Assembly: GCA_964016885.1 (NCBI GenBank)
Contig: OZ024742.1
Coordinates: 159,650,001 to 159,714,000, forward strand
DNA length: 64,000 nt
Source: Eledone cirrhosa
Taxonomy: Eukaryota
Direction: 5' to 3'
The position numbers and the translations under genes are program-made. The notes beneath the pieces were generated by a model, which saw only the letters and a program-made list of their open reading frames with translations, searched no databases and was not told the DNA's origin. Shown here piece after piece: positions 2,610 through 63,634 of the stretch (positions are counted from its first letter, which is position 1; each line of letters starts with the position of its first letter).

Positions 2610-2991
2610 TACTCAGATTTCTCTCGTAACTAATAAGGTCATGAAGTCAAGTCTAGGATGTTACTAATGTGGGGACATCGAGTGCAGTGGAGAGTGGTAT
2701 CGAGCCCGAAGTGAGGCCTGTAGGTAGAAATACATTATCACACATTAAAATTCGCTCATATTACATTCACAAATGGAGGGGCGACGGTGAATAATTTTCC
2801 AAAGTGTGTGTGGGGCGAAGGCTCCACAACAGTCACACTATCCGCCATAGCGATTGGACTGCATCGTGGACTGCATGCCCTGCTTTCCAAGTTATACATA
2901 TATACACAACGAAAATGATAATTAAAAAGGGTTCGAAAAGTGCACCTGATATATATGTAACGAATAGATGGAATTGTTGGTATGATGGTTT

Positions 2992-5139
2992 TATAGCGAG
3001 ATTACTGGGTTGTATGAATGTAACAAAACGAGACATGGTTTGTGTGTATAATATTTAATTAACGGTAGATTTTATAGTTGACATGTCAATAGGAATAGAT
3101 GTTAGAATGAAGCAAAGTTAGTAGTTACCGTTTTGATTGCCAGGCAAACGCGGCTGGCAGAGGACGCCTGGCTAAGGCCAGGCGCCTGTTGGCCAAATTA
3201 ATGGCAGAGCCAAATGTGAGGCTCTTGACCAGGTGCCGAAAAGGCAAAGAGAGAAAGGAAGCTTAAAGTTGTTAGTTTTATAGGGCTCTGACCGGAAGTT
3301 GCAGAAAGGGTTCCACTTCCCGTCTAGATCCTAATCAAAACAAGGGAGACAACCGCTACATAACCTCCCGCCAGAATTTTAGTGTATAAAAATCGAAATG
3401 AAAATATGTAGCAAGTTGGCGAGAATGTTGTAACGGGCATGAAAATTACGACAAAAGAATGTTTGGAAAAATCAATGATAGATATCAAGGTAGCCAACCG
3501 CTCTTGGCCAGAGAACGACTGGACATCCATCTATCCATCACCCAAAGATACAATGTAATAAAGTAAAAGTAATAGAAGAGCTCAAAGTTCAAATGTACAA
3601 AATATAGTTCACAGGTGTGCAATCACATGACAGCAGGAAAGAAAGTGTGTTCCAGAGAATGAATGCAGGTGGTTTCTGTTCTGTGGTATATCGTGAAATT
3701 TCCAACCTCCGAATGGATTTTCTCACAGGAAGAGTGCTGCAAAAATGAATTCTCTGGCTTTGGTGAAGCTGTATTGATGTATTGCTGTTGCTGTTATATT
3801 GCTGTTGCTGCTGCTGTTGTCTCGCTGAGTGAGCGTATTCGGTGTTTAAATTCACAGTAAAATTTTTTAGAAAAAATGAGTTGCGCAAAGTGCTAGAAAT
3901 AGCAGCCGAAGTTGATGGTCGATGTTGAGAATGCGTTGACCTGGAAGGGTCAAGAGGCCAGCGACCAGAGAAATAAGCATTCTTAATAAATGCGCGGTTA
4001 TCAACGGTAAATTTACATTGTAAATTTATAAACCGGCAAATAGAAGAATATAGCTTAAGGCTGAAGAATCCTTGGGGAGAAATGTTATCTCTGGCGTGCG
4101 GCTGTCTGTGAGTAGAGACATCTCAGTGAATCGAGAATTTGTGCTGCCTACACGTGCCAATACAAGGTTGAAAAAAATAATATTTCTAACGCGCGAGAAA
4201 ATGATAGTGCAATTTTGAAAGTGACAATGATGAAAAAGAAAGGCTTCACTCAGCATAATTATTGGTGTGAACTTTGGGAAAAAAAAAAAAAAAAAAAAAT
4301 TGAACGATGAAGAAAACGATGAACAAAAAGGCAATGGTTCATCGAAAATAAATGTTCCTGTTGAAATGTTTTTTAAAGAATATCAAATTTCTTTTTTTTT
4401 TGTGTGTTTTGAAAGAGTTCGTTGTAAGAAACGAGAAACATATATATATATCGTGAAATGTTTTTTTTTTTTTTTTTTTTGTTTTGAAAGTGTTCGTTGT
4501 AAGAAACGAGAAACATATATATATTGGTGAAATGCGACAGTTAATTGATGCGTGAGAGAAAAAGTCTGTCTGTGCGAATTCCACATGTGCGTGTGTGCGT
4601 GTCCTTGAGTATTTTCATAGTTTGTCGCTAAATTTGCTGTGTATTCGTAATGTTACTCACAAAACCAGATGTGCTATTTTTTCTTTTTTTGGGGCGGGGG
4701 GGGGGGGGGGGTGACCACTTATAGCGATGAACGGCTGCGTGTTCGTATCACGTCAGGGTTACCAATATAGCGAGGATACTGGGTTGTATGAATGTAACAA
4801 AACGAGACATAGTTTGTGTGTATAATATTTAATTAACAATGGTAGATAGTATACTTGACATGTCAAAGATGAGGATGTTGTTAGAATGAAACAAAGTTAG
4901 TAGTTACCGTTTTGATTGCCAGGCAAACGCGGCTGGCAGAGGACGCCTGGCTAAGGCCAGGCGCCTGTTGGCCAAATTAATGGCAGAGCCAAATGTGAGG
5001 CTCTTGACCAGGTGCCGAAAAGGCAAAGAGAGAAAGGAAGCTTAAAGTTGTTAGTTTTATAGGGCTCTGACCGGAAGTTGCAGAAAGGGTTCCACTTCCC
5101 GTCTAGATCCCAATCAAAACAAGGGAGACAACCGCTACA
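2992..5139 (-). mobile_element. Non-autonomous LTR element copy A1, inserted in the 3' LTR of B
   Basis: LTRs 2992-3360 and 4766-5139 (TGTAGCGG...CTCGCTATA on minus); PBS 4733-4764; PPT ggcgggaggtta next to 3361; GTTT TSD at 2988-2991 and 5140-5143. The empty site gatggtttcaatgc is seen in B's other LTR. Confidence 0.93.
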
Positions 5140-5579
5140 GTTTCAATGCAAAGAATAATACCAGGATTGTGTTGTTACAATGTTTATTTTATTATAACAA
5201 TATTCAATTTGAATATTAAATGATAAAATCTATAACATGAAATATTCGTACAATAAGTTGGTGGCTCTTCGAGCCACGTAAATACAAGTATCACAGAGTA
5301 CTATATAATATAATTGTATTGTATCTGAAAGATACAATATGACGGACAGAAATAGTGCGTGTAAAAATGCAAGCAGTGTGAACTTACTATGTGTGCGTGT
5401 GTGCGTATTAGTATACTTTCTTATCTTAGCAGTAGTAGTATTCAATCAGCCAGGCGGGAAAGGCATGTGAGAAATTAGTGGACGGACTGTTTTTCGTGAA
5501 GGGAGATTTGACAGCGTAAGTGAATACCTCCTCTCTTATCTGTAGTACCACTTTTTCTGCTGGGTATAAACAAATCCTT

Positions 5580-5940
5580 GTATTTATAACTTCGTTGAAG
5601 TTAGAAGGATGGGTATATCATCTGACCTGTGGTTAGCATCTCCCAAGGGGTTGGTCTGCCGGGTGTAAACAACCCTCGTATTTATAACGATTGAAGTTAG
5701 AAGGATGGATATATCATCTGACCTCTTTTCTGCCGTGCGTAAACAACCATCATCTGACCTGTGGTTAGCATCTCCCAAGGAGTTGGTCTGCCGGGCGTAA
5801 ACAACCCTCGTATTTATAACGATTGAAGTTAGAAGGATGGATATATCATCTGACCTCTTTTCTGCCGTGCGTAAACAGCCATCATCTGACCTGTGGTTAG
5901 CATCTCCCAAGGGGTTGGTCTGCCGGGCGTAAACAATCAA
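5580..5940. repeat. ~130-bp tandem repeat inside the LTR of B
   Basis: Unit gtatttataac..gaagttagaaggatgg..atcatctgacctgtggttagcatctcccaagg occurs three times here and twice at 12122-12350. Confidence 0.85.
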
Positions 5941-6227
5941 CCACGGCTTGTCTCAAAGGCGGGAAAGCTCAGATTCCGTTTCGAATCTTCGCCGGTTTCA
6001 ATACAGGAGTATTCCGTTATAATACCCCTCTTCCAGTGAGAAAGCTAACGATCGAACGATCTAGGAATATGTGAAATGAAGATAGGTATAACTAGGTGTG
6101 TTGTTGAAGAAAATCAGAAAAAAAATACATTAAAGTCATTTATAAACAGGGGAAATGAAAGAAAACATGCAAAACAAATTTACATGCAGGAAAATGTACT
6201 GTGATGTTACATATAATTGAAAATGTT

Positions 6228-7561
6228 TGTAGCGGTTGTCTCCCTTGTTTTGATTAGGATCTAGACGGGAAGTGGAACCCTTTCTGCAACTTCCGGTCAG
6301 AACCCTATAAAACTAACAACTTTAAGCTTCCTTTCTCTCTTTGCCTTTTCGGCACCGATTCACAGAGCCTCTCATTGGGCTCCGCCATTAATTTGGCCAA
6401 CAGGCGCCTGGCCTTAGCCAGGCGTCCTCTGCCAGCCGCGTTTGCCTGGCAACCAAAACGGTAACTACTAACTTTGCTTCATTCTAACAACATCCTCATC
6501 TTTGACATGTCAAGTATACTATCTACTGTTAATTAAATATTATACACACAAACCATGTCTCGTTTTGTTATATTCATACAACCTCAGTAATCTCGCTATA
6601 TTGGTAACCCTGACGTGATACGAACACGCAGCCGTTTATCGCTATAAGTGGTCACCCCCCCCCCCCCCAAAAAAAAAATACCACATCTGGTTTTGTGAGT
6701 AACATTACGAATACACAGCAAATTTAGCGACAAACTATGAAAATACTCAAGGACACGCACACACGCACATGTGGAATTCGCACAGACAGACTTTTTCTCT
6801 CACGCATCAATTAACTGTCGCATTTCACCAATATATATATATATGTTTCTCGTTTCTTACAACGAACACTTTCAAAACAAAAAAAAAAAAAAAACATTTC
6901 ACGATATATATATATGTTTCTCGTTTCTTACAACGAACTCTTTCAAAACACACACAAAAAAAAAGAGATTTGATATTCTTTAAAAAAACATTTCAACAGG
7001 AACATTTATTTTCGATGAACCATTGCCTTTTTGTTCATCGTTTTCTTCATCGTTCAAGTTTTTTTTTTTTTTTTTTTTTTTCCCAAAGTTCACACCAAAT
7101 ATTGTGCTGAGTGAAGCCTTTCTTTTTCATCATTGTCACTTTCAACATTGCACTATCATTTTCTCGCGCGTTAGAAATATTTTTTTTTTTCAACCTTGTA
7201 TTGGCACGTGTAGGCAGCACAAATTCTCGATTCACAGAGATGTCTCTACTCACAGACAGCCGCACGCCATTTATCACCAGGGATTCTTCAGCCTTAAGCT
7301 ATATTCTTCTATTTGCCGGTTTATAAATTTACAATGTAAATTTACAGTTGATAACCGCGCATTTATTAAGAATGCTTATTTCTCTGGTCGCTGGCCTCTT
7401 GACCCTTCCAGGTCAACGCATTCTCAACATCGACCATCAACTTCGGCTGCTATTTCTAGCACTTTGCGCAACTCATTTTTCCTAAAAAAATTTTTTTTTA
7501 CTGTGAATTTAAACACCGAATACGCTCACTCAGCGAGACAACAGCAGCAGCAACAGCAATA

Positions 7562-7592
<31 letters not shown>

Positions 7593-7650
7593 AGCAATAC
7601 AGCAGCAGCAGCAACAGCAACAGCAATACAGCAGCAACAGCAACAGCAAT

Positions 7651-7684
<34 letters not shown>

Positions 7685-8632
7685 TACAGCAGCAGCAGCA
7701 ACAGCAACAGCAATACAGCAGCAACAGCAATACAGCAGCAACAGCAACAGCAATACAGCAGCAACAGCACCAAAGCCAGAGAATTTATTTTTGCAGCACT
7801 CTTCCTGTGAGAAAATCCATTCGGATGTTGGAAATTCACGATATACCACAGAACAGAAACCACCTGCATTCATTCTCTGGAACACACTTTCTTTCCTGCT
7901 GTCATGTGATTGCACACCTGTGAACTATATTTTGAACTTTGAGCTCTTCTATTACTTTTACTTTATTACATTGTATCTTTGGGTGATGGATAGATGGATG
8001 TCCAGTCGTTCTCTGGCCAAGAGCGGTTGGCTACCTTGATATCTATCATTGATTTTTCCAAACATTCTTTTGTCGTAATTTTCATGCCTGTTACAACATT
8101 CTCGCCAACTTGCTACATATTTTCATTTCGATTTTTATACACTAAAATTCTGGCGGGAGGTTATGTAGCGGTTGTCTCCCTTGTTTTGATTAGGATCTAG
8201 ACGGGAAGTGGAACCCTTTCTGCAACTTCCGGTCAGAGCCCTATAAAACTAACAACTTTAAGCTTCCTTTCTCTCTTTGCCTTTTCGGCACCGATTCACA
8301 GAGCCTCTCATTGGGCTCCGCCATTAATTTGGCCAACAGGCGCCTGGCCTTAGCCAGGCGTCCTCTGCCAGCCGCGTTTGCCTGGCAACCAAAACGGTAA
8401 CTACTAACTTTGCTTCATTCTAACAACATCCTCATCTTTGACATGTCAAGTATACTATCTACTGCAAATTAATGGCGGAGCCCAATGAGAGGCTCTGTGA
8501 ATCGGTGCCGAAAAGGCAAAGAGAGAAAGGAAGCTTAAAGTTGTTAGTTTTATAGGGCTCTGACCGGAAGTTGCAGAAAGGGTTCCACTTCCCGTCTAGA
8601 TCCTAATCAAAACAAGGGAGACAACCGCTACA
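6228..8632 (+). mobile_element. Non-autonomous LTR element copy A2 with folded-back 3' LTR
   Basis: 5' LTR 6228-6600; PBS 6602-6633; 3' LTR 8164-8464 followed by an inverted copy 8465-8632; TGTT TSD at 6224-6227 and 8633-8636. Confidence 0.93.
7537..7770 (+). repeat. Compound CAG/CAA/TAC microsatellite inside A2
   Basis: Repeats of cagcagcaacagcaata; the matching tract in A1 (~3780-3820) is short. Confidence 0.9.
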
Positions 8633-8829
8633 TGTTCATACGAAAAGTTTGTTGATTAAAAGTTCGTTCATTTCATAGAAACGGAAAAATGTTCTTTTGA
8701 TGTGGGTGATGCACAGAGTCAATTGATTTGTGTGTAGCAATAGTTCATGACCACAGAAATTGGCCGATTCGTTGAAATGTACAAATTAGCCGAAATGTCG
8801 ACCAGATGCATAATTTGTACTTACCCGAT

Positions 8830-11792
8830 AAACTTGTCCGTATAGCGTGGGCCATCGAACTGTTCTTCCAGATTTGGTGTGTCGGGGTTATGCAGAATTC
8901 GTCGTGTTTGTGTCGGGCAAAGTTGTTGGTGAGTCTGCTGGAGAAACGGTGGGTACTGATGGCAAATCCTGTTCCATGAACGCTTTTTTTAAACGGTCAA
9001 TGGAGACGGTATTTCGTTTCCCGTTCAAGTCGAGGACGAACTACTTAGGGCGTTTCTGTATCACCTCGTAGGGCCCGTAATATGGCGGACGAAGTTGCGA
9101 TGGAATACCGTTATTTCTAACGAAAACATGCGTCCATGTATCGATGTCTTTTGGTATGTGTGAAGTAACGTGTTGTTGTTTAGGGGCTGAAGGAGACAGA
9201 TGCGACATGGATGACCGTAAACGGTGACATATTTTGTTGGGTCTGGAAGTTCTTGTGGCGAAACAGGAGCGATCATTTGCCCGGGTAGAGCGAGTACCGT
9301 GCCATAAACCATTTCAGCCGGATAATGTCCGACTCCCTCCTTAACAGTGGAACGAATACCAAGAAGAATGAGTGGGAGGTATTCGAACCAGTTAGTGGAG
9401 TCTTCGTAAGCCTTGATAGATGCTTTTAGCTGGCGGTGGAAGCGTTCAACCATGCCGTTAGCTGCAGGGTTATACGCCGTTGTAAGGATGTGTTTACACC
9501 CGAGTAGACGAGTCAGTTCGGTAAAGAGGTGCAAATCGAACTGACGTCCTCTATCCATAGTCATGGTTGCAGGTGTGCCGAAACGAGAAACCCGGTGAAA
9601 CTAGCGTTTTGGCGACAGTTTCCGCGGTAATATCCATCAGGGGAAAAGCTTCTGGCCAGCGAGAAAATCGGTCGACACAGGTGAGAAGAGGAGTGTAGTT
9701 GTGAGAAGGAGGCAATGGTCCAACGATGTCTATGTGGACATGTTGGAACCGTGCATCAGGTGTTGCGAAAGAACCGATCAGGGCTTTGATGTGCCGGTGA
9801 ATTTTCGCCTTCTGGCACGCCATACAGTTCCTAGCCCATTCGCGGGTGTCCTTGCTGATGTTGGGCCACACAAAGCGGGCAACCATCAGTTTCTGCGTGG
9901 CTGGGACGCCAGGATGTGCCAGAGAATGCAGTGCCGAAAAAACGTTGCGTCGATGTTTCCGGGGCACGTATGGGCGCTCGTGGCCCGTGGAGATGTCGCA
10001 CCAAATATAACCTGCGAAGAGGGCATCGGGCATTCCTGCAATTTCAAGGATGATTTCCGGAGCTGTAGCAGTTCCTCGTCATCCTGTTGATCTGCTGCAA
10101 TCTTCTGGAGATCGATAGTGGCAGTGGTGTGGATTGCGTTAAGCTCCATGCGCGACAGGGCATCAGCTGCTGAGTTGGTGGCACCCTTAATGTACCGAAT
10201 GTCAGTAGTGTACTGAGAAATGAAGTCTAGATGTCGAACCTCCCTGGGTGAGTGGCGATCAGGCTTGGCGTTGAACGCGTACATTAGTGGTTTGTGGTCG
10301 GTGTATATGGAGAAAACACGACCTTCTAGCATGTGTCGAAAATGCTTGACAGCAAGGTATGCTGCCAATAATTCACGACTGAATGTGCTGTACTTAGTTT
10401 CGGCGGGTTTTAATGGCTTAGAGAAAAAAGATACAGGTCGCCAAATATCGCCAGAGAGTTGTTGAAGCACACCTCCAACTCCGAAATTGGATGCATCAGT
10501 CAATACACACATTAGGGCGTCAGGTTTGGGGTAACTCAGCATTTTCTCGGGCAACATTTTCTTCAACTCAGCGAAAGCGGTACATTCTTTTTCGCTGAGA
10601 TTGATGTTCGCGTTTTTGGTTGTACGCTGCCGCAGCAAATCTGTGAGCAGTTGGGCTGTCTCTGCACAGTGGGGTATAAATCTTCTGTAGAAGTTCACCA
10701 GGCCAAGAAATTATCGCAGTTTGCGGAGAGATGTGGGCTGTGGAAAATCAATGATGGATTTGACTTTCTCCTTAAGTGGGCGAATGCCATCTTTATCAAT
10801 GATGTGTCCCAGAAAATGAAGGGACGCAACTCACATTTGCTGGGGTTGATAACAATTCCGTATTCACGCAAACGTTCGAATAGCAGGTGCAGGTGCCTCT
10901 CATGTTCTTCCTCGAAGCCACTGGCCACCAGTAAGTCGTCGATGTATGCGTATACAAAAGGTAGACCTCTGGTGACTGTATCAATGAACCGTTGGAATGT
11001 CTGCGCTGCATTGCGCAAACCGAAAGGCATACGCAGAAATTCGAACATTCCAAAGGATGTTGTGACGGCGGTCTTCGGAATATCAGCGGGTTCCACAGGT
11101 ATCTGATTGTAAGCTCGCACAAGATCTATCTTCGAAAATATGCGAGTTCCGTGCAGCGAGCTAGAGAAGTCCTGTAGATGAGGCACTGGATAAGAGTCAG
11201 GCACGGTGCAGTTGTTCAGTGCACGGTAGTCGCCACAGATTCGCCAGTTGTTCGACTACTCCTTGGGTACACAATGTATGGGTGAGGACCAGTTGCTGCT
11301 GGACGGACGTATGATGCCGAGATCCAGCATGTGCTGAAATTCTTGTTTGACGAACTTCAGCCGGTCTGGTGGTAGCCTTCTAGGTCGTGCAGCGACAGGT
11401 GGGCCGTGTGTTTTTATGTGGTGGGTAACGTCATGTTTTACAGGGCAGGTGTTGAATACTGGTCGAGCTACGTCTGGGTATTTGTTGATTATATAGCTGT
11501 GTCGTGTTGTTGTTGCCGGTCGTGAAATAACTGGACTGACTGTGGCTGTCCAAGCGGCTATGCCGCGCACAGCGAGACCAGTGGAGTTGTCAACGAGTCG
11601 TCGGTTTTTCAGGTCCACTAGCAGTGAGAAGTGCTGAAGAAAATCAGCTCCTAAAATAGGGGTCGGCAGCTTAGCCACATCGAATACCCACTGAAAAGTG
11701 CGGCGTAGTCCTAAATTTAGTGTCAGGGACTGCTCTCCGTAGGTCGGAATAGGTGAATGATTCACCGCATTGTGACACCGTGAAACAGACAC
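8830..11792 (-). pseudogene. pol: Gypsy pol (protease C-terminus, RT, RNase H, integrase) broken by frameshifts and stops
   Basis: ILGADFL (protease), [18 protein letters not shown] (RT), TDAS..ELLA..YTDHKPL (RNase H), [23 protein letters not shown] and GPY (integrase) across ORFs 11256-11792, 10695-11204, 9886-10698, 9551-10033 and 9061-9564. Confidence 0.95.
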
Positions 11793-12435
11793 ACAACCTT
11801 CTGGTTGTGTGTCTGTTTCACGGGGTCACCAGTTGTAACGGATAGATGGAATTGTTGGTATGATGGTTTCAATGCAAAGAATAATACCAGGATTGTGTTG
11901 TTACAATGTTTATTTTATTATAACAATATTCAATTTGAATATTAAATGATAAAATCTATAACATGAAATGTTCGTACAATAAGTTGGTGGCTCTTCGAGC
12001 CACGTAAATACAAATATCACAGAGTACTATATAATATAATTGTATTGTATCTGAAAGATAAGTGAATACCTCCTCTCTTATCTGTAGTACCACTTTTTCT
12101 GCTGGGTATAAACAAATCCTTGTATTTATAACTTCGTTGAAGTTAGAAGGATGGATAAATCATCTGACCTGTGGTTAGCATCTCCCAAGGGGTTGGTCTA
12201 CCGGGCGTAAACAACCCTTGTATTTATAACGATTGAAGTTAGAAGGATGGATATATCATCTGACCTCTTTTCTGCCGGACGTAAACAACCGTCATCTGAC
12301 CTGTGGTTAGCATCTCCCAAGGGGTTGGTCTGCCGGGCGTAAACAACCAAGCACGGCTTGTCCCAGAGGCGGGAAAGCTCAGATTCGGTTTCGAATCTTC
12401 ACCGGTTTCAATACAGGAGTATTCCATTATATATA

Positions 12436-59519: not shown

Positions 59520-62500
59520 CATCATCATCATCATCATCATCAACGTTTAACGTCCGTGTTCCACGCTTGCATGGGTTTGGACGGGGGTTTTCCCACTTGA
59601 GGCAAGAGTGATTGCCTTGCTCGCATAGGACTGTCTGGCAGGTTTTCTACAGTTGGATGCCCTTCCTAACACCAACCACATTTACAGTGTGGGTCTGGGA
59701 GGTTTTTACCGTGTTGCCTACACGGCCACATTACAGCGTGGACTGTGTGTTTTTTTGTCGTGACACCTATACGATCTCATTTGTTTCGGCCTGGATGGTG
59801 TGGCACCAACATAACTTTACATAGAAGGGGGCGGTGTGGATGGGGTGGGGGTGGTGGGATGGGGGTGTATTTTGTTAGAGATGCCTACTGACTGTAGTAG
59901 GTTTTACTTTGTATTTAGGTAAGGCGGGTCTTCTCTATTACTGAGTACCGCCAAAGGTCTCGGTCCAGTGACATTGTCTTGGTGAGGTGTAAGTGTGTGA
60001 GGTCGGAGTTTATCAGCTCGTCCCAGGTTTTTCTGGGTCAGCCTATTCCGTGGCTACCGTCTATCTTTATTGCCCTGCACTTTGTTATACAGCTATCGTC
60101 CTTCATGCACATCACGTGACCATACCAACGTAGCCTTCTCTCTAGTAAACAACATCTGATCCCTCTTATTTCTAAAATTTTCCTTAGTTCGTTTATGCTT
60201 TGTCGTTCACGTATATTACTATTACACATCCAGCGGAGCATGCAAGCTTCGTTTCTCTCTAGTCTGCGTATATCCTCTGCACACAATGCCCAGGTCTCAC
60301 TGCCATGCAACATTGCTGTTCGTATGCAGGCATCGTACAACCTGCCTTTCATTTTTAGGGAGAACCCTTTAGCGGCTAATAGTGGTATAAGCTCTCTGAA
60401 CTTTTTCCACCCAGTTCTGACTCTAGCTACTGTACTTTCAGAGCACCCTCCCCCACTGCTGATTTTGTCACCCAGGTAACAGAAGCTGTCCACTATTTCT
60501 ATAGAACCCTCTGCGCAGTTGAAAGAGCTAGTATTTTGTGGGCACTTGCTGCTACTTATTGCCCCAGAACACCGGCCACATGTAAAATCTACGTTCTTAG
60601 TTAGCTTACCTGTGATCCCACTACATCTTTTATGCACCCAAACTTTGCATTTGGGTCACAAAATGGAATTCCTACCTACGCCTTTCCTACACACTGAGCA
60701 TTGCCACTTCCTGGAGGGGACCGCCGCCTTATTTTCTTTCTTACAAACTAGAACTTTAGTCTTAGCCAGGTTAATTTTAAGGCCTTTTGATTCTAGGCCG
60801 TGCTTCCATGTTTGGAATTTCTTCTCTAGCTCGGCCATTGATTCAGCTATAAGCGTTAGATCATCTGCGTATAGGAGTTCCCATGGGCAGCCGGTCTTGA
60901 ACTCCACTGTTATAGCCTGGAGGGCGATAATAAATAGTAGGGGGCTAAGAACAGAGCCCTGATGAACACCAACTTTTACACTAAACTCTTCACTATATTC
61001 GTTGCTGACTGTTTCTTTATACATGGCTTGTATAGCTCTCACAAGCCATTCATCAACACCTAGTTTTCTAAGAGCCCACCAGATAATGGAACGGGGGACT
61101 CTGTCGAAGGCCTTCTCCAAGTCGACGAAAGCTAAGTATAGGGGTTTACTTTTAGCTAGGTACTTCTCCTGTAGTTGTCGTACAATGAAAAGAGCGTCTG
61201 TGGTACTTTTTCCTGACACAAACCCGAACTGCATTTCATCTAGATCAATTCGCTCTCTGATTAGTTGCGCTATTACTTTTTCCGTGACCTTCATGACCTG
61301 GTCGATTAATTTAATGCCTCTATAGTTACTCCTATCTAGAGCATCTCCTTTACCCTTATAACAGTTAACGATGATGCTGCTACGCCAGTCCTTCGGAACA
61401 ACCCCATTCTGTATGACTTGGTTGACTATCCGGGTGACCATGGTGTGTCCCACCGTACCAGATGCCTTCAGCATCTCGGCAACTATTTCCGAAGGCCCAG
61501 CCGCCTTGCCTGTCTTCATATCTTTGATTGCCTTACTTATTATACTACCCTCGACTAACACTGCTGGTCCCTCTATTGGGTTGATGTGGGGGAGACTGTC
61601 TTTCTCCCATTTATTCTCCTCATTTAGTAGCCTTTCATAGTGACACTTCCAAGCTACCTTCTTATCGGCGTCGGTGATAGCAAGTATGCCGTCATCGTTA
61701 AGTACACACTTCTCCCCGACAATATCACTGTTTTCCTTGACACATTGCCGAGCAATCCTGAACACCTCACGTTTTTGGTCCTCACGTTGTAGAACATGCT
61801 TGAACTTTCTTTCCTCTGCTTCCCTTCTTGCGAGGTACACTTGTCTCCTAGCTTCCCTCCTGGCCACTTGATAGTCTTCTCTGCTTCCCCCATCCCGCCA
61901 TACTTTCCAAGCCTGCTTTTTGGCCTTAATTGACCCCTCCACCTTACTGTTCCACCACCATGTTACTCTCCTCCTGCCTACAGGCCTGCTCCAGCCACAG
62001 ACTTCGTCTGCTGCCGTCAGCAGGTTTGCTTTCAGGAATTCCCACTGTTCCTCTACCTTGTACGTCTCTAATTGCTCTTCCTTACTGTCGAAAGCATCAA
62101 GTAATATGCTTTGGAATTTATTTTTGGCTGTGGGGTCCTTTAGCTTCCATATTTTTCTCCTGAGGATAGTCCTCTTCTGTTGTCTAGTACGTCTCGTCCT
62201 GACTATTAGGTCGCTAATTATCAGTCTATGTTGGGAGGTGCATTCTTCATGGGGGAGGGATTTAGTGTTTACGACAGTCACTTTGTCACGTCTTCTGGTA
62301 AGGATATAATCTACCTGGCTGGTATGTTCCCCTGATCTGTAGGTGATCAAGTGATTGTCTCGTTTTTGAAGTTAGTGTTGCAGATAGTTAGGTTATTTGC
62401 GTCACAGAATTCCAGGATTCTGGAGCCTTCCTCATTTCTAGTACCAAACCCATAGCCACCATGGATTTCGTCGTAGCCGTCACAATGTTGTCCAACGTGA

Positions 62501-63130
62501 CCGTTTAGGTCGCCTGCAATAATTATATAGTCACTGTCGGTTATTTGGGAGGTAGTGAGCATCAGTGTCTCATAGAATCTGTCTTTTATAGTGCTGGGCA
62601 GTCCGGATTGGGGTGCGTACGCGGATATTACTGTCACCGTAGTTCTATTGAGGACAAGTCTTATTTTAATTATTCTGTTGTTCACTCTATTTACGTCTAT
62701 TATCTTATCTGCCCACTTTTCTGCTACCATGATTCCTACTCCACCCAGCCCATTGTCGTTTACCACCCAGAAAAGCTTATAACATCGTTTTCTACCCACA
62801 ATGAATCTAGCAGATCCACCCCTCCACCTGGTCTCTTGAATACAACAAACATCGACCTCCTTACGTTCAAGCATTTCTACAACCTCGTTAGAGCAACCCT
62901 TTAAGGTGCCTACATTCAAGGTACCAAATCTGAAGTTTTGGATTGCGTTTGGGGGGTGGGAAAGGTGGGGAGCGGGGGGAGATGGGGTTATGTTAGCCAT
63001 CCGCGGCCGAAACAAAGAGGCATGCTCGCATTCTCGTCCACGAGGTGTGTTTGTCTTTAACTTTGGCATTGTCGCTGAGCGTCCAGATTTTTCTCTCTTC
63101 AACTCTCCGGAACTCCGTAGTCCTTCCATC
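59520..63130 (-). mobile_element. Near full-length RTE-clade LINE (APE endonuclease plus RT with PHD-like insert); one frameshift and two in-frame TGA stops
   Basis: GTLNVGTL, CIQETRW, SAYAPQ, GDLNGHVG (62347-63129); NYRGIKL, QFGF, FVDLEKAFDRV, HQGSVLSP, LLYADD (60656-62350); RLRWYGHV (60038-60637); (GAT)n tail at ~59520. Confidence 0.95.
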
Positions 63131-63634
63131 CTACATATCGAAGGCGACCAGGTAAGCGATAGTATAGGCCTCTGGCTTATGATTGGTCCACGTAATAATA
63201 ATGGTGGTGCGTGGGGGCGGGAAGGAGGGGTGTTGAGTTGTTAGCGAGAAGGATAGGTTTAAGTGAGATCCCCGTATTTAACGAACGTAAACAAAAATAC
63301 AAAAACTTCCGTATTTTACAAGCATGACAGAAATACAAGAGATTTGTTTTGGAAAATACAGGGGGAAATAGGATGGATGGATGGCTAGTGAGACAAGAAT
63401 TGGAAAGAGGATAGAAAAAATGCTATTGGAAGGACTAAAAATGCTATTGGAAGGACTATGGAATTAGGCGGATGTTAGAAAAGGTAGAAAAATGAGTACA
63501 TTACATTATACCATGAATGAAATTCAGCCACAAGTTTGGCGAAAGTGAATTACTTTGTCTTATATATGTATATGGGTAGAGAGAGAGGGGGGTGGGTAAT
63601 TTGACCGCATGTTGTAGAGTGTGGTGGAGGGGGA

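Follow-up and report, generated by a model that had tools for sequence, protein, structure and literature searches.

Inverted LTR ends in a CsRn1-type retrotransposon family: a recurrent U3/U3 insertion and its probable origin in reverse transcription

The locus and its two-U3 element

The window, by which we mean the whole stretch of 64,000 nucleotides of Eledone cirrhosa DNA that was analysed, lies on contig C3 of a 3.0-Gb genome. It holds two copies, A1 and A2, of an LTR element that we call family A, together with the broken remains of a second LTR retrotransposon, host element B; A2 is located between the pol of B and its 3' LTR. The features, in positions of the window, are:

2956-6023, minus strand: 3' LTR of B (approximate bounds), interrupted by A1 and an insertion of ~180 bp
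2992-5139, minus strand: A1, an ordinary family member (TGT...ATA) with the duplication GTTT, inside the 3' LTR of B; our internal control
6224-6227, no strand: left TGTT, 4-bp target-site duplication
6228-8632, plus strand: A2, whole element, with TGTT on both flanks
6228-6600, plus strand: A2 5' LTR, 373 bp, TGT...ATA, followed by T and the PBS
6601-8163, plus strand: A2 internal region, non-coding, with CAG/CAA repeats, colinear with A1
6602-6619, plus strand: A2 PBS of the CsRn1/tRNA-Trp type, with the family's usual mismatches to the PBS printed in the accessible part of PMC2582038
8152-8163, plus strand: A2 polypurine tract (PPT) and TTA spacer, ahead of the 3' LTR
8164-8464, plus strand: A2 3' LTR, positions 1-301 of 373 only, cut 3 nt before ATTAAA
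8465-8632, minus strand: inverted arm of A2, reverse complement of LTR 1-168 without mismatch; ends in CA, the U3 terminus
8467-8472, no strand: AATTAA common to donor and acceptor, starting 2 nt past the junction, inside the inverted arm
8633-8636, no strand: right TGTT, 4-bp target-site duplication
9061-11825, minus strand: broken pol remnants of B (RT, RNase H, integrase order; GPY motif)
11834-12433, minus strand: 5' LTR of B (approximate bounds), then a PBS identical to the published CsRn1 type

A sequence-only reading had described A2 as an element in which the 3' LTR lacks its last ~72 bp and continues into an inverted copy of its own beginning. Both parts of this description are borne out: 301 of the 373 bp are present (72 bp missing, one mismatch to the A2 5' LTR), and 8465-8632 is the exact 168-bp reverse complement of 8164-8331, agreeing with the 5' LTR at 167/168 positions. 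The element ends read TGTAGCGG...CCGCTACA, with TGTT at 6224-6227 and 8633-8636. In the 5' LTR a TATA-like motif stands at LTR 79 and an ATTAAA at LTR 305, with putative roles as promoter and poly(A) signal, respectively. The longest frame of the internal region gave no Pfam hit, and at ~6640-6660, ~45 bp 3' of the PBS, there is a look-alike of the U5 tip plus PBS.

Two finer points of that reading stand in part. The variants carried by the inverted arm do match A2 but are specific to a sub-lineage rather than to A2, one of 109 other LTRs being identical over the 168 bp. The AATTAA at the switch point is common to donor and acceptor as claimed, but it is offset by 2 nt; the junction 8464/8465 itself shares no base, and the two intervening bases (CA) derive from the inverted, short arm.

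The two TGTT flanks had been taken for a true target duplication, and an alignment of uninterrupted relatives of B confirms this. We fetched 29 relatives, 25 of which carried the 12-mer key that made the empty site readable; all 25 have a single TGTT, and the same empty-site form is seen in Logan contigs, so that the duplication is real.

An artefact in the form of a library chimera or an assembly error might be suspected from the 100% identity of the A2 arms and from the matches listed, in which no contig bridges the junction (none of the 28 Logan contig pieces listed spans 8464/8465, and the runs may be those of other individuals). We give this very little probability: a chimera would not halt at an LTR terminus and then resume at the duplicated 4-mer in B, and four further loci, described below, share the form; in three of them 3-4 changes have since accumulated between the arms.

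Within the window, the GPY motif after the integrase and the RT, RNase H, integrase order are confined to B. The gag of B is absent from the window and family A is devoid of a coding region, hence there is no CHCC Gag motif to read. B, which carries the pol remnants in the window, is a candidate for the helper of family A. A1 and A2 were considered as a convergent pair and rejected as such; they are divergent, independent insertions. Copies of A seem to recur in or beside B-family sequence, at 2992-5139 and 6228-8632 (two copies within this window's B alone) and at the loci L066, L243/L040 and L149/L052. The LTR ends of B appear to be mirror-image (start TAT, end ACA) despite its CsRn1-type PBS; the TA run around B makes the start ambiguous, and a motif search in B relatives gave nothing. 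Elsewhere in the window, the long open frames (571, 297 and 205 aa) of another element occupy 60038-63240 on the minus strand, a dispersed repeat family of ~200 bp has more than 10 copies, and a tRNA gene was not found.

Family A and its termini

Sequence features mark family A as non-autonomous and as a gypsy family of the CsRn1 type; its LTRs have the form TGT...ATA, and it counts about 600 insertions. The opening 20 bases of its LTR have 1,162 exact matches genome-wide; 639 termini, in seven classes, are not preceded by TA (532 of the 639 were listed); TA-preceded termini, ordinary 3' LTRs included, were viewed for the first 245 Mb of C1. The last three LTR bases (n=167) are ATA in 152 cases, AAA in eight, ACA in four and others in three. 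A sample of 160 termini (120 random and 40 targeted, resolved by script) comprised 70 two-LTR copies, 57 solo LTRs with a 4-bp duplication, three U3/U3 insertions, two 3' LTR starts and 28 unresolved cases; the 4-bp duplication was resolved automatically in 130/160, and the TA end had integrated normally in at least 127/160.

The CsRn1 clade (CsRn1, PwRn1, AgCR), as portrayed in the accessible text of PMC2582038, shares with A a tRNA-Trp-type PBS, a PPT before the 3' LTR, a 4-bp duplication without fixed sequence and LTR ends of the form TGT...ATA or TGT...AAA; clade features matching A also appear in the available portion of PMC3630058. Given this match in PBS, duplication and LTR ends, TA is a normal and working end in the clade. 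A reading of the TA end as a handicap, bypassed by an element with two CA ends, does not hold, TA being a published feature of the clade and most sampled copies having integrated normally. Family A is unlike CsRn1 in that it encodes nothing, and A2 in that it lacks the U5 end and has a second U3 end, a form that the accessible text of PMC2582038 does not describe. Direct LTRs, a PBS, a PPT, the lack of coding capacity and many copies place A among the non-autonomous LTR retrotransposons (TRIM/LARD), at ~2.1 kb against the limit of under 1 kb in the TRIM definition quoted in excerpts of PMC10886601. An autonomous partner with A's LTRs was absent from the fetched loci, and A's internal frames gave no Pfam hit.

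The PBS is exactly as printed in the accessible part of PMC2582038 in 10/68 A 5' LTRs and in B, and differs from it at 1-2 bases in most remaining A copies, A2 included; a mismatched PBS is kept in 47/68. The two LTRs of a copy diverge unevenly: over 57 pairs, divergence amounts to 0.005 per site in positions 1-250 versus 0.021 in 251-373 (~4x), and 16/57 pairs have at most one difference in the first part and at least three in the second, where the last bin may hold boundary-calling errors. A1 shows the same pattern, with 2 versus 12 differences (first part versus last ~120 bp). Asymmetric LTRs arising from mixed templates are known in HIV (PMC9278108, in excerpt). With its retained mismatched PBS and its LTR-pair asymmetry, family A looks like a primer-recycling element. 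Since 5' and 3' LTRs often differ solely in the last ~120 bp, dating by LTR divergence would overstate ages in this family. Tandem A copies together with their flanks occur at G000:C14:21.37-21.47 Mb (13 listed, ~5.7-kb period), C2:87.36-87.38 Mb and C1:204.43 Mb, where they are carried in larger tandem duplications.

Recurrence of the form and origin of the joint

A search of the genome for more copies of the A2 junction, proposed together with the original description, found the junction once (up to 1 mismatch), and the architecture recurs at four other loci. The 532 termini, listed by class, were merged and searched for convergent pairs within 3 kb; five pairs emerged, and sampling added one with an unlisted partner. 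In five insertions, each with a different junction, both ends are exact U3/CA termini and the flanking 4-mers are identical:

A2: element to 3' LTR 301, plus inverted 168-1; duplication TGTT
L032, C1:206960725: LTR 1-302, plus inverted whole LTR; duplication AATG
L070, C4:101426855: element to 3' LTR 330 of 353, plus inverted whole LTR; duplication AAAC
L071, C6:14649053: 5' LTR, PBS and about 50 more bases, plus inverted whole LTR; duplication ATAT
L190, C8:31102732: element to 3' LTR 279, plus inverted 354-1 of 369; duplication GACA

The rate is at least 5 in roughly 600 insertions, about 0.8% as a lower bound. With 639 termini placed uniformly, one would expect ~0.1 pairs that converge within 3 kb and ~0.001 that are also flanked by identical 4-mers; this model ignores clustering, which raises the chance of neighbours. 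Termini preceded by CA seemed enriched, and examination of 19 further ones yielded no extra U3/U3 case. The U3/U3 form is a real and recurrent by-product of LTR retrotransposition, a rare repeated accident. The claim that integrase accepted a substrate with two U3 ends is likewise supported by the real duplication, the exact U3/CA termini and the four further duplication-flanked loci. L070 has lost its true PBS, and what follows the LTR there is the look-alike of U5 tip and PBS noted above for A2.

Two candidates were rejected as U3/U3 cases for their distance or identity, namely C4:243078908/243095983 (17 kb apart, independent) and L087 (inverted neighbour at 72%). A third, L241, was the sole independent pair converging within 3 kb that we inspected; it consists of two solo LTRs 1.3 kb apart with their own, different duplications and 91% identity. 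Such neighbours do exist, and double insertion at one target has been described for other element classes (10.1101/158386, in excerpt), as it would have to be here if a second family member had entered the same 4 bp in the opposite orientation and the middle had later been deleted. Yet each of the L241 partners lies within a duplication of its own and their identity is just 91%, and target 4-mers are diverse, with a chance of a match of about 0.01. The surviving U5 tips of L032, L070 and L071 without a third copy of the duplication after them largely refute this origin, which we hold to be extremely improbable.

Two further loci lie outside the count of five because the duplication is absent. 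L069 (C3:283800252) is a 53-bp hairpin, and L033 (G000:C4:11438562-11438604) has 34 bp of the U3 end, inverted, facing a 5' LTR in head-to-head orientation; this LTR retains the final bases of the PPT, and its U5 tip is altered. Both may be accounted for by one-ended insertion, in which integrase inserts the U3 end alone and a host polymerase extends the free U5 end on viral DNA before it is joined to the chromosome; in the available text of PMC5041404 this is described for ASLV and HIV, with copying from either viral strand, so that, as in A2, one terminus is replaced by copied, possibly inverted, element sequence. However, that route leaves one host-made junction with host deletions or long duplications, whereas all five A cases have two exact termini and an exact 4-bp repeat, and the TA end of the family integrates normally. 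As an explanation of the five it has next to no probability.

The arms themselves bear on where the joint was made. One arm is at most one LTR long in 5/5 cases (168; 353 of 353; 353 of 353; 334 of 334; 354 of 369), and in 3/5 (L032, L070, L071) the end of that arm is the U5 tip followed by 0-2 bases, which can also be read as part of the other arm. Junction homology is nil at L190 and 2-3 bases at L032 and L070; A2 has 6 shared bases, set off from the junction by two mismatches. Between an arm and its own element there are 0-4 differences, as against medians of 15-37 in comparison with 109 other LTRs; the own element is strictly the nearest of these in 3/5 cases and is tied by one LTR at A2 and by three at L032. 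The inverted LTR of L070 is identical to the 3' LTR and differs from the 5' LTR at 15 positions. The exact U3/CA ends, the arm of no more than one LTR and the common sub-lineage point to a joint made in DNA outside the chromosome.

Such a joint could also arise from two cDNAs that are inserted at one target by their U3 ends, or joined tail to tail, with end-joining after trimming and reduction of one partner to a single LTR by LTR-LTR recombination; integrase would still accept U3/U3 ends, and the junction would be the work of repair rather than of reverse transcriptase. This explains the exact U3 ends and the 4-bp duplication, end-joining would account for near-blunt junctions with 0-3 shared bases and a free cDNA end for an intact U5 tip, and solo LTRs are plentiful (57, next to 70 two-LTR copies, in the resolved sample). 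The second partner must, however, shrink to one LTR or less in 5/5 cases, and in a family as diverse as this, with medians of 15-37 differences, two independent cDNAs would need to come from one source each time for the arms to lie 0-4 differences from their own element. We regard it as unlikely.

A later genomic rearrangement, in which a template switch during replication or repair led to reverse copying of the LTR start with a return at the element end, would preserve the duplication and explain arm identity. It might be aided by the imperfect terminal inverted repeat of the LTR, and the inverted end of A2 plus one base does match the original end at 7/8 bases. A switch-and-return inversion, in an element whose ends are normal, exists at L166 (G000:C4:8361460-8364660; TG...TA ends, duplication CTAT), the 5' part of which is a 300-bp palindrome; its fold at TTAATTAA runs through the PPT and rejoins internal sequence, U5 and PBS being lost. 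Against this, a return inside the five shared terminal bases predicts hybrids in which a U3 body ends in TA; the three genome-wide matches to such a hybrid are two 3' LTR starts and one 5' LTR start, so that no hybrid is among them. CA is kept in 5/5 cases, no more bases match past the terminus in 3/5 on the side tested (L071: 4, in a palindromic duplication), and in three cases both switches would have had to hit an LTR tip precisely. This origin seems distinctly improbable to us.

An origin of A2 before integration is thus the best explanation, and its timing during reverse transcription is the probable one. Of the earlier proposal of a fold-back during reverse transcription, the pre-integration origin stands, through the duplication, the exact U3/CA ends and the four further cases. 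A simple self fold-back does not: a self-folding strand has no cause to stop at the U3 start of the 3' LTR and would continue past the PPT, as the fold at L166 does, so the partner was likely a separate strand with its 5' end there.

A strong-stop route and its consequences

In the reading that we favour, and consider probable, reverse transcription gave rise to A2 by linking plus-strand strong-stop DNA to a second strand of plus sense, and integrase then inserted the product by its two CA ends. The PPT would prime several strong-stop DNAs, each running from the exact U3 start to the U5 tip or short of it. The 3' end of one of them (in A2 cut short at LTR 168) would anneal through AATTAA to a plus-sense strand and be extended; in A2, the piece 1-168 would have paired near its 3' end with plus-sense LTR 304-309 (region 302-309), or else the two strands may have primed each other. 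The short arm supplies the two bases next to AATTAA, as expected if it was the primer, and the product fits RNA and plus-strand DNA equally well as the template. Copying back over the strong-stop piece would run off its 5' end and leave a second blunt U3 end, and the exact duplications suggest that a helper integrase joined both U3 ends in one concerted reaction. This route is reconstructed from the end products of five events; loss of long palindromes from genomes or assemblies may bias the survivors towards short arms.

Strong-stop DNAs of the required kind have been described. According to the accessible text of PMC5371799, second-round plus-strand strong-stop DNA of Ty3 starts at U3, ends at the U5 tip and is reported to be displaced, and dead-end strong-stop products accumulate in particles; a similar statement appears in excerpts of PMC2939329. 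The PPT recycling of Ty1/Ty3 laid out there (PMC5371799) resembles A in its several strong-stop DNAs from U3, one kind of which ends at the U5 tip, and in a PBS that is not inherited from the tRNA, A keeping a mismatched one. In Ty1/Ty3, as far as that text goes, the surplus strands are dead ends, whereas in A they have apparently been built into integrated DNA. The inversion circles of autointegration (SISYPHUS, Ty1, MLV) also contain inverted segments made inside the particle; in the available part of PMC7197481 they are circular, both ends being consumed, and remain uninserted, in contrast to A2, a linear two-U3 product in a chromosome. For RSV, unequal recognition of U3 and U5 ends has been reported (PMC12789967, in excerpt).

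The five A cases are natural germ-line insertions. The same pair of att ends is accepted in vitro, where the integrases of Ty1 and avian retroviruses take two-U3 model substrates. In the literature searched, which was covered in part and from which subscription journals were mostly missing, we found no report of natural U3/U3 insertions.

In shape A2 resembles DIRS elements with their inverted LTRs, MITEs and foldback TIR elements, having long terminal inverted repeats that match at 167/168 bp. The likeness of A2 to a TIR element made from an LTR retroelement, remarked upon in the sequence-only reading, accordingly holds for its shape and fails for movement as a unit. TIR elements move as units in multi-copy families; the A2 junction, tested genome-wide, occurs once, and comparison of the four other junctions with each other leaves five cases with five junctions, for which reason we reject A2 as a TIR transposon, MITE or foldback element. 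DIRS elements use a tyrosine recombinase and insert without a duplication of the integrase type. A2 was rejected as one of them on account of its lack of a coding region, its 4-bp duplications and its gypsy-type PBS/PPT. A2 is not a new class of mobile element, and any function is hypothetical.

The 3' LTR of A2 breaks off immediately ahead of the ATTAAA of LTR 305, and on the plus strand this motif next occurs at 8655, beyond the inverted arm; that arm holds the TATA-like motif of LTR 79 facing back into the element. Read-through RNA is predicted to fold, trivially from the repeat, into a perfect stem of 168 bp. Since retrotransposition from A2 would rebuild ordinary LTRs, the U3/U3 form should not be inherited; it is predicted to be a dead end, and the unique junction fits this.

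The insertions offer germ-line fossil evidence that a gypsy-type integrase takes two U3 ends in a concerted reaction and, on the favoured strong-stop route, that surplus strong-stop DNA can reach chromosomes; at a frequency of at least 5 in roughly 600, the process can be counted in other genomes and put to the test in Ty3 particles of yeast. A wider generalisation is conceivable, if doubtful: primer-recycling LTR retrotransposons might routinely (~1% of insertions) turn dead-end strong-stop DNA into two-U3, integration-competent DNA, and thereby into ready-made hairpins that seed small-RNA silencing loci. If this were true, each U3/U3 insertion would be a perfect hairpin with convergent LTR promoters, in A2 also without a 3' poly(A) signal, and an expanding family would for that reason seed its own small-RNA silencing loci; its repeats being inverted, the class would escape programs that find LTR elements. 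This is a possible route by which a spreading retrotransposon family makes the inverted repeat that triggers its own silencing, the role of the hairpin RNA being a prediction.

Three-LTR tandems, and LTRs followed by a partial PBS joined to a piece of U5, were observed at L150, L093, L113 and L176, and are further products of aberrant transfer or recombination.
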